A stretch of 58,475 bases of DNA from an uncultured Bacilli bacterium. GTDB lineage: Bacteria; Bacillota_I; Bacilli_A; RF39; UBA660. A model generated the notes under the pieces. It was not told the DNA's origin. It saw only the letters and a list, made by a program, of their open reading frames with translations, and ran no database searches. Positions within the stretch are counted from its first letter, which is position 1; each line of letters begins with the position of its first letter. Below, in pieces: positions 7,450 to 38,065 of this stretch. Position numbers and translations under genes: made by a program. The DNA lies in the NCBI GenBank assembly GCA_947586825.1, contig CANPXU010000005.1:1-58475 (forward strand). The letters are read 5' to 3'.

Positions 7450-8661
7450 ATGAATGCAGTAATTGAAAAACTTGATGGTCTTGGAAATGGTATTTGTTAT
7501 ATTAATGGTAAAATCTGCTTTGTACCTAAATGTATACCGGGCGATGAAGTAGAAATTGAAATTACTTATGAAAATAAAGACTATTTAAAAGGAAGAGTTA
7601 CTAAAATAATTAAATCATCGCAAGACAGGATATCACCTTTTTGTCCATATTTTGACTCATGTGGTGGCTGCAGTCTTCAGATGCTTAACTATGATAAAGG
7701 TTTAGAGTATAAAAAAGAAAGAGTTAAGAACATCTTAGGAAGAATTATTAATCTGCCTGAACCTGAAGTTATAGCAAACACACATAATAAAGCGTATCGC
7801 AATAAAATTGAATTAAAGATTCAAAACAAAGAGATAGGCTTTTATGAAAGAAAAACTCATAATTTAATAGCTATTCATAATTGTCCTATTACTAAAGAGT
7901 GTATTAATAACTTTTTGCCTGAATTAAAACTTATGAACATCACAAATGGTGATGTTATGATTAGGGCTAATTTTAATGATGAGCTTTTAATAAGTATTAC
8001 GACAAGTGATGAAGTTAAATTAAATGAAGAGAATTACCCTGAAAGAAAAGTTGTAGGCATAATCGTTAATGGAAAGACTATCTATGGCGAAAATCATTTT
8101 ATAGATAAGATAGGTAATTACTTTTTTGATGTATCTTATGATTCGTTCTTTCAAGTAAATAGTTACATTAATGAAAAACTATTTGATATTATCAAAGAAA
8201 ACTCTATAGGAAATACTATACTCGATTTATACTCTGGAGTAGGTACTTTAGGCATTGTAGCAAGCCAAACTGCCCAAAAGGTATATTCGATAGAGTGTGT
8301 GCCAAACGCTGTTTTAAATGGCATTAAAAACGCTAAAATGAATAAGCGTGATAATATAAGCTTTATTTTAGGCAATGTTGAAGATAAAATTAAGTTTATT
8401 GAGGATAAGGTAGATACTGTAATTGTTGATCCTCCTCGTAAAGGCCTAGATGATTTTACGATAAATAAGCTTTTAGAATTTAAACCAAAGAAAATTATTT
8501 ATATATCTTGTGAGACTGAAAGCCTTGCTAATAATCTTAAAGTTTTAAAAGATTTATACAATTTGGATAAATTATATATTTTAGATATGTTTAGTTATAA
8601 TTATTTAGCAGAATGCGTTTGTATTTTAAATATAAAGGAGAAAGATTATGGAGACAATTAG
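7450..8661 (+). CDS. rlmD: 23S rRNA (uracil-C5)-methyltransferase, RlmD/TrmA family
   Basis: TRAM domain, CPYFDSCGGC Fe-S motif, DLYSGVG SAM site, VDPPRKG, YISC catalytic Cys. Confidence 0.85.
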   Translation: MNAVIEKLDGLGNGICYINGKICFVPKCIPGDEVEIEITYENKDYLKGRVTKIIKSSQDRISPFCPYFDSCGGCSLQMLNYDKGLEYKKERVKNILGRIINLPEPEVIANTHNKAYRNKIELKIQNKEIGFYERKTHNLIAIHNCPITKECINNFLPELKLMNITNGDVMIRANFNDELLISITTSDEVKLNEENYPERKVVGIIVNGKTIYGENHFIDKIGNYFFDVSYDSFFQVNSYINEKLFDIIKENSIGNTILDLYSGVGTLGIVASQTAQKVYSIECVPNAVLNGIKNAKMNKRDNISFILGNVEDKIKFIEDKVDTVIVDPPRKGLDDFTINKLLEFKPKKIIYISCETESLANNLKVLKDLYNLDKLYILDMFSYNYLAECVCILNIKEKDYGDN

Positions 8662-9115
8662 AACGACATTATTGCTTATTATAAAAGATGATATGATAAT
8701 GCTTGCTAAGAAGAAAAAAGGCTTTGGCGAAGGCAAATATAATGGCGTTGGAGGAAAACTTGAAGAAGGGGAGAGTGTTGAAGAAGCCCTTATAAGAGAA
8801 ACTAAAGAAGAGATAAATATAACTCCTTTAGATTATGAAAAAGTGGGCGTAGTTAGTTTTGATGAAGATTATAAAGGTAAACGTTCAAGACTTGAATTTC
8901 ACCTATACACTTGTTCTAAATGGGAAGGTGATTTAAAAGAAACCGAAGAGATGGAACCTCATTGGTTTAATATAAAAGAAATCCCTTATGATGAAATGTT
9001 CCCTGATGATAAACATTGGCTTCCTTATGTTCTTGAAGGCCGTAAGTTTAATGCTTATTTTAATTTTGATGATGATTGGAATATTATTGATAAACAAATA
9101 GATATAATAAGTTAA
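8648..9115 (+). CDS. NUDIX hydrolase, 8-oxo-dGTP diphosphatase (MTH1-like)
   Basis: NGVGGKLEEGESVEEALIRETKEE Nudix box; MFPDDKHW. Confidence 0.85.
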   Translation: METIRTTLLLIIKDDMIMLAKKKKGFGEGKYNGVGGKLEEGESVEEALIRETKEEINITPLDYEKVGVVSFDEDYKGKRSRLEFHLYTCSKWEGDLKETEEMEPHWFNIKEIPYDEMFPDDKHWLPYVLEGRKFNAYFNFDDDWNIIDKQIDIIS

Positions 9116-9121
9116 CTCAAG

Positions 9122-9150
9122 TTGTAATTTATTTAAATTAGTACTATAAT
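9122..9150 (+). promoter_or_regulatory. SigA-type promoter of sRNA copy 1 (identical copy at 9312-9340)
   Basis: TTGTAA-17 nt-TATAAT. Confidence 0.75.
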
Positions 9151-9156
9151 AATAAA

Positions 9157-9226
9157 TGAAGGAAGTGCATTAGCACTTGCCTAATTGGGTAAGCACCGGT
9201 TCGAGCAACCGGAGCTTTTTTATTTT
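9157..9226 (+). ncRNA. Putative ~70-nt antisense sRNA (type I antitoxin-like), copy 1
   Basis: Own promoter, internal hairpin AAGTGC-atta-GCACTT, intrinsic terminator CCGGTT-cgagc-AACCGG plus T-tract; no real ORF. Ends are inferred. Confidence 0.65.
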
Positions 9227-9249
9227 AACCTAACCTCCTTATAGTTAAA

Positions 9250-9303
9250 TTATAGTTGTATTAACAGAAGGAGAATAATCAAAAATAATGTGTAGAATAA
9301 TTT
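9250..9303 (-). pseudogene. 5'-truncated remnant of the small hydrophobic toxin-like ORF
   Basis: Encodes ...LFLIILLLLIQL*, the same C-terminus as 9441-9527; in-frame TAA at 9304-9306 and no SD or ATG. Confidence 0.6.
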
Positions 9304-9346
9304 TTAGTGTGTTGTAATTTATTTAAATTAGTACTATAATAATAAA

Positions 9347-9416
9347 TGAAGGAAGTGCATTAGCACTTGCCTAATTGGGTAAGCACCGGTTCGAGCAACC
9401 GGAGCTTTTTTATTTT
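9347..9416 (+). ncRNA. Putative antisense sRNA, copy 2 (cis-antisense to the toxin mRNA 3' UTR)
   Basis: Identical to copy 1; convergent with the ORF at 9441-9527. Confidence 0.65.
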
Positions 9417-9440
9417 ACCCGAAACCCCCTTATAGTTAGA

Positions 9441-9527
9441 CTATAGTTGTATTAACAAGAGAAGAATAATCAAAAGAAGTAGGAAAATAATAATGTATTG
9501 AATACGGATATGAGAATCCTTTTTCAT
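9441..9527 (-). CDS. 28-aa hydrophobic peptide, type I toxin-like (MKKDSHIRIQYIIIFLLLLIILLLLIQL)
   Basis: Translated by hand; SD GGAGGAG 6 nt upstream; one Leu/Ile TM helix after a basic N-terminus; below the ORF-track size cutoff. Confidence 0.75.
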   Translation of the reverse strand: MKKDSHIRIQYIIIFLLLLIILLLLIQL

Positions 9528-9592
9528 CTACATCTCCTCCATTCTAGCTCGAAGTTAAAATGAAGGCAGGCCCTAATGCAACTTCCAAAGCC

Positions 9593-9621
9593 ATATTACA
9601 AAAGAAGAAGATAAATGTCAA
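9593..9621 (-). promoter_or_regulatory. SigA-type promoter of the toxin-like mRNA
   Basis: TTGACA-17 nt-TAATAT on the minus strand; inferred start site about 9586. Confidence 0.7.
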
Positions 9622-9763
9622 ATGACCAAAAATGCAAATTGGAGCACCAAAATGGCCTTTTTGATTAAATTTTTGCAAAAAAGTGGCAATTTAGTTAACC
9701 AAATCAGTAGTTTTGGTAAAATTTATATTTTTTTAAAAATTTTTTTAGTATAATTAATTAAAG

Positions 9764-10660
9764 GTGAAGTATATGGAATATATAATTAATTTTATTAGGG
9801 GATTTTTTATGGCTTTAGCAGATAGCGTACCAGGTGTTTCCGGCGGAACTATTGCTTTTGTATTAGGCTTTTATGATAATTTTATTGCCGCTTTAGATGA
9901 TCTTTTTAGAGGTGATTTTAAAAAGAAGAAAAAGGCTTTCTTTTATCTATTTAAGATAGGTATAGGCTGGGTAGTAGGTTTTATTCTTGCAGCTTCATTT
10001 CTTTCTAGTTTATTTGAAAATCATATCTATGAACTTTCTTCTTTATTTTTAGGTTTTATTATTGTATCTCTTCCTTTTATCATTAAGGAAGAATTAAAAG
10101 CATTAAAAGGCAGATATTATAATATTGTTTGGTTTTTCATTGGTTTATTATTCGTTGTAGGTATTACTTTACTTAATGGCACTGATATTTTAAATATTAA
10201 TTTAACAAATCCTAACTTAATGAGTTATATATATACTTTCTTAGTGGCAGCCGTTGCCATATGTGCGATGGTTTTACCAGGCATATCTGGGTCTACGGTT
10301 TTACTTATCTTTGGTCTTTATGTTCCTATTATGGCAAAGATTAAGATTTTACTTGGCTTTGATTTTTCGGTATTTCCTATCCTACTTGTCTTTGGTTTAG
10401 GAGTTATCTTTGGAATTTTCTCATTTGCTAAAATTGTGCGTAGAAGCTTAGAGAAGAATCGTGGTGCGGTCATCTATGTTATACTAGGCATGATGGTAGG
10501 ATCTGTTTATGCCATTATAATGGGACCTACCACTTTAGAAAAGGCTCTTCCAATGCTTTCTTTTGATACTTTTAATATTCCGATGTTCTTACTTGGCATA
10601 GTTATCATTATTGCTTTAGAAAAATCAAAAGATATTTTAGCTAAAAAGAGGATCAAATGA
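9764..10660 (+). CDS. DUF368 membrane protein (undecaprenyl-phosphate translocase-like); start may be ATG 9773
   Basis: ADSVPGVSGGTIAF and AMVLPGISGS motifs. Confidence 0.85.
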   Translation: MKYMEYIINFIRGFFMALADSVPGVSGGTIAFVLGFYDNFIAALDDLFRGDFKKKKKAFFYLFKIGIGWVVGFILAASFLSSLFENHIYELSSLFLGFIIVSLPFIIKEELKALKGRYYNIVWFFIGLLFVVGITLLNGTDILNINLTNPNLMSYIYTFLVAAVAICAMVLPGISGSTVLLIFGLYVPIMAKIKILLGFDFSVFPILLVFGLGVIFGIFSFAKIVRRSLEKNRGAVIYVILGMMVGSVYAIIMGPTTLEKALPMLSFDTFNIPMFLLGIVIIIALEKSKDILAKKRIK

Positions 10661-37936: not shown

Positions 37937-38065
37937 TTGACTTTTATGCTTATTTTTGTTAATATTAAATCGCTTTAAGTCATTTCATCCACTCTAAAAA
38001 GGTTATAAATGTATTTAATACTACCTTAAAGGTGTGACTTATAAATATTAAAGGAGGTTAGAGAA
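37937..38065 (+). promoter_or_regulatory. rplU promoter plus structured 5' leader (L21-leader candidate)
   Basis: TTGACT-17-TAATAT; leader closed by AAGTCA/TGACTT with inner AAGGT/ACCTT pairing; L21 leaders are known upstream of rplU in Bacillota. Confidence 0.45.

Follow-up and report, generated by a model that had tools for sequence, protein, structure and literature searches.

Toxin-antitoxin systems of type I are thought to be under-detected, owing to peptides that fall below gene-calling limits and to fast divergence (PMC12390103). Here we describe a candidate of this type in the genome of an uncultured Bacilli bacterium (GenBank assembly GCA_947586825.1), located on a stretch of 58,475 nucleotides (nt) of contig CANPXU010000005.1 that is referred to as the window. 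The candidate consists of a 28-codon open reading frame (ORF) on the minus strand and a convergent small RNA (sRNA) gene on the plus strand. The T1TAdb database lists two key determinants of type I toxin messenger RNAs (mRNAs), namely pairing of the Shine-Dalgarno sequence (SD) with an anti-SD sequence and long-distance interactions between the 5' and 3' ends (PMC8594479). In the bsrG/SR4 system of Bacillus subtilis, nt 1-35 of the bsrG mRNA pair with nt 232-262 and the SD lies in a double-stranded region. The antitoxin RNA SR4 is complementary to the 3' half of the bsrG helix; once bound, it releases the 5' end and lengthens the helix that holds the SD, and RNase III contributes to decay (PMC3834814).

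Judged from its sequence and predicted folds, the window locus is closest in design to bsrG/SR4 and not to hok/Sok, AapA/IsoA or par. An earlier note on this DNA had compared it with hok/sok, AapA/IsoA and par/Fst; bsrG/SR4 is the closer parallel because the predicted antitoxin overlaps the 3' end of the mRNA and targets the 3' half of its 5'-3' helix. The systems of the bsrG/SR4 group (also txpA/RatA, bsrE/SR5 and yonT/SR6) consist of convergent RNAs that overlap at their 3' ends, and the window locus has the same layout in silico. The peptides are unrelated, that of the window being shorter (28 amino acids, aa); BsrG has about 38 residues and carries its charged tail at the opposite end. SR4 is 183 nt long, whereas the sRNA of the window is about 70 nt long and, in the subtype to which the window belongs, falls short of the ORF. 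The host of bsrG/SR4 is Bacillus, whereas the window derives from an uncultured small-genome member of the Bacilli and the locus lies in no evident prophage.

The par locus of pAD1 (Fst / RNA I - RNA II) resembles the window locus in its convergent transcripts, small sRNA, Gram-positive host and structured mRNA 5' end. Its direct repeats read in opposite directions are, however, shared only by the clade of the window module, and the 5' contact is unconserved. The bidirectional terminator shared by the two par transcripts is absent from the window locus, in which the terminator hairpin of the sRNA lacks a minus-strand U-run. Moreover, the overlap in the window spans the whole sRNA, the peptide is not of the Fst family, and the repeat-based pairing, which in par lies in the translation initiation region, would fall on an anti-SD arm. 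The locus resembles hok/Sok and AapA1/IsoA1 in that a long-distance contact between the 5' and 3' ends is predicted to close the full-length toxin mRNA. The antitoxins of those systems pair with the mRNA 5' region, and in AapA1 the 3' end itself hides the SD, so that 3' trimming activates the mRNA. In the window, by contrast, the predicted antitoxin covers only the 3' untranslated region (UTR; 9344-9416, versus 9441-9527 for the ORF) and the SD is held in a local hairpin; the hok/Sok and AapA1/IsoA1 peptides are also unrelated to that of the window, and their hosts are Gram-negative.

We consider it likely that the locus is a type I toxin-antitoxin-like module. It is supported in silico by its anatomy, conservation, covariation, coding constraint and lineage distribution, which are taken up below.

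The toxin-like ORF (9441-9527, minus strand) encodes MKKDSHIRIQYIIIFLLLLIILLLLIQL, a peptide with a charged N-terminus (MKKD) and a hydrophobic C-terminus of 17 residues (grand average of hydropathy of residues 12-28, 3.56). Its SD, GGAGGAG (9534-9540, minus strand), ends 6 nt before the ATG, and GGAGG is invariant in our homolog alignment A3. The locus thus contains a hydrophobic membrane-type ORF of fewer than 60 codons with an SD of its own, as type I toxin genes do. A promoter-like site, TTGACA-17-TAATAT (9593-9621, minus strand), was located by motif scan; its equivalent in the copies found in another genus (genome G064, below) is TTGACT-16-TATCAT/TATAAT, with the spacing counted by hand. 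The predicted toxin mRNA is about 242 nt long (9345-9586, minus strand). Its ends are based on a terminator-like site and on the fold, the 3' end being placed after the hairpin 9368-9353, which forms the terminator-like site on the minus strand. Terminator-like sites are well in excess of chance (4 found, 0.3 expected).

The antitoxin-like sRNA (9344-9416, plus strand) is about 70 nt long (about 73 nt by its coordinates) and has its own promoter-like site, TTGTAA-17-TATAAT (9312-9340, plus strand), located by motif scan and conservation. Both hexamers of this promoter are kept in all ten modules of the window subtype, which come from two genera, with a spacing of 16-17 nt (counted by hand). 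The sRNA is composed of a 5' tail, hairpin 1 (AAGUGC-AUUA-GCACUU), a variable linker, a terminator hairpin (9386-9402) and a U-run (T6). A 69-nt version folds into two hairpins with a predicted energy of -23.2 kcal/mol (z = -3.1). Among 12 distinct sequences 94.3% of the alignment cells are paired and six pairs are changed on both sides, compared with at most 51% paired in slid controls. The predicted antisense RNA gene has its own promoter-like site, a terminator and a conserved, covarying fold, and the complementarity of its RNA to the mRNA follows from the overlap. The features that the earlier note had described (both promoters, the SD, the 28-aa ORF, the plus-strand sRNA gene, a direct repeat and the pairing of the mRNA ends) were all recovered at the same coordinates.

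The predicted 242-nt mRNA (9586-9345) folds with an energy of -75.2 kcal/mol (z = -5.75), with its first ~20 nt paired to its own 3' UTR. The 5' arm of this long-distance helix (9567-9586, minus strand) is a near copy of the hairpin-1 segment of the sRNA. The 3' arm (9351-9372, minus strand), with which it forms an inverted repeat, lies in the toxin 3' UTR and is complementary to sRNA hairpin 1; the sRNA and the mRNA 5' end would therefore compete for the 3' arm. The duplex of the two arms alone has an energy of -30.8 kcal/mol, compared with -11.8 +/- 2.8 kcal/mol for shuffled sequences, none of 500 of which reached the same value. In the minimum free energy structure the sequence following the 5' arm, CCUUCAUUUUA (9556-9566, minus strand), acts as an anti-SD arm that pairs with 9546-9536, including the SD, in a local hairpin of 11 bp. 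Both cis silencing elements that characterise type I toxin mRNAs, the SD/anti-SD pairing and the 5'-3' interaction, are thus found in silico.

These structures are conserved. In the window subtype, 11 pairs of the 5'-3' helix are intact in 10 of 10 aligned mRNAs, with two compensatory changes; in the anti-SD/SD hairpin 95.6% of the cells are paired across ten homologs, and two pairs are changed on both sides. Taken jointly, the two elements are 98% paired in ten modules, compared with at most 53% in slid controls. The earlier note had proposed that 18 bp form between 9586-9564 and 9372-9351, and the fold, the duplex energy and the conservation with compensatory changes all agree with this pairing. 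In the folding and covariation analysis of homologs that it had suggested, three structures (the fold of the sRNA, the 5'-3' helix and the hairpin of SD and anti-SD) likewise proved to be conserved with compensatory changes. When the part of the mRNA complementary to the sRNA was blocked in constrained folds, the predicted accessibility of the SD fell from 0.107 to 0.009 in the window mRNA, and from 0.18 to 0.002 and from 0.058 to 0.006 in two mRNAs of G064.

Copies of the window (MKKD) subtype were found in several genomes. The same genome contains another intact module on its contig 9 (C9:760-1195), between a DUF2207 gene and tRNA-Lys(CTT). It is 97% identical to the module on the window contig (C5), and a hidden Markov model (HMM) of the module aligns the two units over 436 positions, including about 130 nt of palindrome-rich DNA. 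The module is also present at the NUDIX and tRNA-Lys loci of two sister species, represented by metagenome-assembled genomes (MAGs) that bear the label 'uncultured Bacilli bacterium'. One of them (G018) has the tandem arrangement seen in the window; in the other (G021) one intact copy occupies the NUDIX locus and a decayed copy, with the toxin 5' end deleted and the sRNA U-run broken, the tRNA-Lys locus. When genome contigs were searched by pattern, only the two sister MAGs (isolates Lapin-007 and Lapin-022) matched. A covariance model of the sRNA, applied to 301 genomes of the bacterial family, detected seven copies at 42-49 bits in G064, which belongs to another genus and has seven to eight copies in total, one of them with a stop at codon 6. 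A refined model added two copies in a congener of G064 (G345), one intact and one decayed and lacking the toxin 5' end.

The copies in G064 and G345 retain the layout and the promoter-to-promoter length of about 310 nt, and encode MKKDCQILFHYIIILLLLVIIIYLLNQQ; MKKDADS(T/I)LFQRIIIILLLRIILYL(L/I)KLL; and MKKDTQIFLLYIIIILLLLIIFNLV. An ORF length of 25-29 aa is kept in nine of ten diverged modules and in one further module (G345, 25 aa). The comparison of homologs called for by the earlier note thus found the ORF, both promoters and the sRNA fold kept in diverged copies. The presence of repeated and decayed copies in the genome of the window, G021, G064 and G345 is as expected of chromosomal toxin-antitoxin genes.

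The locus is also related to a wider family. A weak match of the sRNA model in genome G473 lies convergent to an ORF that encodes MKKKDLLISFLILIIILLIVSVMILCIKK. With this sequence included in a peptide profile, matches at E <= 0.05 were obtained in 165 of the 401 genomes examined from the bacterial family, spread over 119 of 214 genera; at this threshold some of the weaker matches may be due to chance. Of 26 loci that were read, 23 encode a nearly invariant 29-aa peptide (consensus MKKKDLLISFLILIIILLIVS.MILCIKK, beginning MKKKDLLISF), and GGAGG occurs upstream of the ATG in all except three. Class-wide sampling (399 genomes scored) gave 11 genomes with a match at E <= 1e-4, every one of them from the same bacterial family. 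The sRNA models built from the MKKD type match a convergent sRNA beside 29-aa ORFs with scores of 17-29 bits (E values between 1e-6 and 5e-3 for 60 kb) in several genera (genomes G256, G142, G289, G241 and G473), always at the correct position and on the correct strand. An alignment of 19 mRNAs of the 29-aa type shows a 5'-3' helix of 23 pairs; over this helix and the anti-SD hairpin combined, pairing is 96.7% and six pairs are compensatory.

The coding sequence of the 29-aa subtype has a mean column identity of 0.95, compared with 0.67-0.68 in the UTRs. Its variable sites are distributed 10/3/15 over the three codon positions, and there are 21 synonymous and 14 non-synonymous codon variants. 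On the strength of this conservation, the codon-position pattern and the synonymous excess we take the 29-aa peptide to be a real, selected product.

The window module and the 29-aa cassette are probably homologous, which would make the window locus a divergent MKKD subtype of a large lineage-restricted family. The window locus has a convergent sRNA that is probably homologous, an ORF of the MKK(K)D-hydrophobic type and a 5' arm that copies the sRNA, and it shares with the 29-aa cassette the size and order of the module, the convergent promoters, the 5'-3' helix, the anti-SD hairpin and the host family. The two differ in several respects: 1) peptides of the window subtype are only 39-48% identical to the 29-aa consensus, 2) the 29-aa peptide ends in KK whereas that of the window ends in hydrophobic residues, 3) the terminator U-run of the 29-aa cassette overlaps the last codons whereas the sRNA of the window ends about 25 nt short of the ORF, and 4) the window type has an extra palindrome-rich segment. 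Further members of the family occur in the same genome as the window: an intact one (C48:429-646, L192) that encodes MSKKDFLIFFLIVIILLLIVLLFVILI and has a 5'-3' inverted repeat recognised by eye, a frameshifted copy (C23:19489-19726, L193) and a relic consisting of the leader and the start (C20:15896-15949, L194). The earlier note had suggested that the locus may be a new type I family. No named family matches it, as suggested, and the 29-aa cassette likewise appeared under no name in the libraries searched; the locus is not isolated, however, but one subtype of the larger family.

If the locus is a type I toxin-antitoxin module, it could work as follows. The minus strand would be transcribed into an mRNA of ~240 nt that encodes the 28-residue peptide with its hydrophobic C-terminal helix; the peptide would insert in the membrane and harm the cell if abundant, with damage ensuing when the sRNA is lost. 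The mRNA would be self-silenced both by enclosure of the SD in the 11-bp anti-SD hairpin and by pairing of its first ~20 nt with the 3' UTR. The plus strand would produce the ~70-nt sRNA, whose full length is complementary to the final ~70 nt of the mRNA, a stretch that includes the 3' arm. By binding to the 3' UTR, the sRNA would displace the 5' arm, the near copy of its own hairpin 1, and free the mRNA 5' end. As described for bsrG/SR4, the resulting long duplex could be cleaved by RNase III and the binding could tighten the sequestration of the SD. The synthesis of both RNAs, the transcript ends, the toxicity, the neutralisation and the RNase steps of this scheme are inferred.

Several observations weigh against this interpretation. 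The number of promoter-like sites (six) is no higher than the 5.2 expected from shuffled sequences of this AT-rich DNA; the promoters are credible because both are conserved in diverged homologs and not because of motif enrichment. The compensatory changes in the MKKD subtype come from essentially two clades and represent few independent events. The drop in SD accessibility upon blocking becomes an inconsistent trend in the 29-aa subtype, and the predictions bury the SD whether or not the sRNA is present, which is puzzling for translation of the peptide. The window copy is not detected by a DNA profile made from the 29-aa type, and the homology of the subtypes rests on weak model scores. Finally, the 29-aa peptide is almost invariant across many genera, which is unusual for a toxin and would also fit a conserved cellular role.

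This last point leads to an alternative that we judge unlikely, namely that the product is a genuine small membrane protein without toxicity, acting for instance on a membrane complex as a modulator, and that the RNA anatomy reflects plain cis-antisense control of its amount, which serves neither addiction nor defence. Near invariance of the 29-aa relative in more than 20 genera under purifying selection is what a conserved partner would impose, and the window copy is located among housekeeping genes. The gap that contains it (9116-9763) is bounded by a NUDIX gene (8648-9115) and a gene for a PF04018 undecaprenyl-phosphate-translocase-like protein (9764-10660), and an RNA methyltransferase gene is also among its neighbours. 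However, the module occurs in one to eight copies per genome at non-syntenic sites, about 60% of the sampled genomes of the family have no match, and the copies are often decayed and enriched beside tRNA genes. Such behaviour is selfish or accessory and unlike that of a core membrane subunit. Moreover, the double lock of the mRNA, which combines the 5'-3' helix with a buried SD, is a recognition determinant of type I toxin mRNAs (PMC8594479).

A second alternative accepts the toxin and places its control elsewhere: in a par/Fst-like system, the 5' end of the sRNA would pair with the leader close to where the ribosome binds, and control would depend mainly on that pairing instead of the overlap at the 3' ends. 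The direct repeat that the earlier note had pointed out, the 12-nt sequence AAATGAAGG(A/C)AG with copies at 9154, 9344 and 9558, is indeed present, and in the window clade it would let the sRNA 5' end pair with nt 18-29 of the leader at -14.4 kcal/mol, a value reached by at most 1% of shuffled sequences. In the G064 clade, on the other hand, the best pairing (-9.5 kcal/mol) is at a different site and is equalled by 14-22% of the shuffles; because it is at the level of chance there, the pairing of the direct repeat is not a defining feature of the module. Since the target of the sRNA tail is the anti-SD arm, such pairing is predicted to expose the SD and not to block it. There is also no shared bidirectional terminator, the terminator-like site of the minus strand being the next hairpin (9368-9353), and neither the peptide nor its relatives match the Fst peptide family in Pfam or NCBIfam. 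We therefore regard a par/Fst-like mode of control as very unlikely.

That the unit is a non-coding repeat, such as a dispersed promoter/terminator cassette or an element similar to a miniature inverted-repeat transposable element, with an incidental short ORF, is scarcely credible: it is repeated within genomes together with extra palindromic DNA, many copies lie at contig ends as is typical of repeats, and the peptide has never been annotated, but the ORF start, its length and the MKK(K)D-hydrophobic pattern are kept across clades with widely different nucleotides, the codon-position pattern and synonymous excess of the 29-aa relatives indicate coding constraint, the strong SD is invariant at fixed spacing, and a repeat search of 8900-9900 found no inverted repeat linking the module ends (no dedicated search for target-site duplications was made).

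Read as a type I toxin-antitoxin-like module, the locus would indicate that a whole family of peptides of 25-29 aa, unannotated so far, is hidden in uncultured small-genome gut Bacilli. It would also mean that the logic of bsrG/SR4, which has been dissected experimentally, is recreated with unrelated sequences. The family reaches eight copies in genomes of ~1.2 Mb, and one may ask why a reduced genome should retain modules in such number. It would furthermore provide a natural test set for the co-evolution of 5'-3' helices, anti-SD hairpins and 3'-overlapping antitoxins, as well as a source of compact RNA parts.

The sRNA gene in the window is part of a tandem duplication that comprises the sRNA gene and the toxin 3' end (9121-9238 versus 9311-9428, 97% identical). 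The upstream sRNA gene (copy 1; 9154-9226, plus strand) is an orphan antitoxin-like gene that is identical to the downstream one (copy 2) across 9121-9224. Its promoter-like site (9122-9150, plus strand) has the same sequence, TTGTAA-17-TATAAT, as that of copy 2, and its terminator hairpin (9196-9212) is followed by a T-run. Copy 1 scores 106.1 bits with our RNA model R1, among the building sequences of which it is itself included. Between the two sRNA genes lies a toxin relic (9250-9300, minus strand), consisting of the 3' part of the ORF, LFYTLFLIILLLLIQL, and a stop, without start codon, SD or promoter. The relic corresponds to the last 16 codons (tblastn match at 9300-9253) and also appears as a direct-repeat family. 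We propose that the gap 9116-9763 be annotated with a single gene for the peptide, two genes for sRNAs and a pseudogene.

Whenever two copies that are otherwise ~97% identical are compared, the sRNA varies most in the linker that joins its hairpins (9372-9380 in the window), with variants TAATTGGG, TTAGGTGG, TTGTTGGC and TAAAAGGG. This linker may be a loop free of constraint, or it may determine specificity and so prevent cross-talk between copies. [quoted passage not shown]

Beyond the toxin promoter lies the palindrome-rich segment (9625-9755), which repeat comparison and the module HMM show to be co-duplicated with the module. It contains CCAAAAATGCAAATTGG, CCAAAATGG, TTGGTTAACCAA and TTTTTGCAAAAA. 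A solitary partial copy occurs in the same genome (C17:14584-14669, L195; nhmmer E = 1e-8), and modules of G064 and G345 (L109, L113, L114 and L118) have analogous GCAAAATTG repeats on the same side. Within the segment, an outward promoter-like sequence, TTAACC-16-TAAAAT with an upstream TG (9695-9722), faces the PF04018 gene in the window and tRNA-Lys on contig 9. The segment may be an operator array or a portable promoter. In the window subtype the toxin/sRNA unit always occurs together with the palindrome-rich segment. It is possible, although we consider it rather improbable, that the module is not simply a selfish toxin-antitoxin pair but serves to stabilise one end of a larger, promoter-delivering cassette. 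If that were true, the cassette would mark or protect hot spots at which surface proteins vary, as well as insertion sites next to tRNA genes, in very small genomes; the toxin would impose a cost on deletions that arise when copies recombine, and sRNA copies without toxin, such as 9121-9238, would act as anti-addiction elements.

Of four G064 modules for which the downstream DNA was read, three lie directly upstream of leaders of the form TTGACA...poly-G...TATCCT (L109, ~1170-1240; L113, ~1180-1240; L114, ~1150-1215) and the fourth does not. The G-runs of these leaders vary between copies from about 9 to 15 G, and their location inside the promoter spacer suggests phase variation by slipped-strand mispairing. 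Downstream of the leaders are genes for exported proteins that begin with a hydrophobic segment (MNKK..., with the motif GFSYAVW) and appear TasA/SipW-like by eye. A tRNA gene, of various identities, is present in 10 of 32 loci of the family and lies within ~300 nt of the module in eight of them (L131, L149-L152, L156, L158, L172 and L173 are tRNA-linked, as is the contig 9 copy of the same genome, L006 633-708, ~50 nt from tRNA-Lys(CTT)). This is far above the ~2% estimated by chance and suggests an insertion preference or linkage to a tRNA-targeting element.

The window peptide matches no family in Pfam or NCBIfam (E <= 10) or in PHROGs, and its relatives have only chance-level matches to unrelated families. 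Homology to BsrG/TxpA-type toxins, for which the Pfam family is Hol_Tox, was likewise found neither for the window peptide in Pfam and NCBIfam at E <= 10 nor among the matches of its relatives, which include no toxin family. A search of 5.8 billion proteins with a 45-aa variant returned eight short unnamed entries at E <= 1, four of them clear (E < 1e-5). Viral contigs gave no match to a pattern combining the peptide N-terminus and SD, phage records gave none either, and plasmids gave only a 34-nt AT-rich match in Buchnera. A prophage or plasmid context for the window copy was rejected. The metagenome pattern MKKD[ST][HQ]IRI, searched as degenerate coding sequence, gave 37 matches, all attributable to chance. 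A tblastn match of the peptide at 350-433 of the window (39% identity, E = 0.22) is out of frame in a 411-aa ORF, and weak blastn matches of the hydrophobic-coding stretch in relatives contained no homologous small ORFs on inspection. Matches of the RNA model in G070 and G200 (~27 bits) fall in apparently continuous coding sequence, and these, like those in G421, G474, G181, G276, G352 and G318, were rejected as lacking a convergent peptide ORF.

Within 9000-9800, Rfam yielded only chance matches at E <= 10, and at eight homologous loci it yielded only tRNAs. The best of the chance matches is the PyrR model, which aligns with both sRNA copies at 31.7 bits (E = 0.024), below the gathering threshold of 54; the alignment tracks the two hairpins and the U-run, and the match was rejected. 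Elsewhere in the window, at 37977-38049, lies an ordinary ribosomal protein L21 leader (Rfam RF00559; 37 bits, gathering threshold 36).

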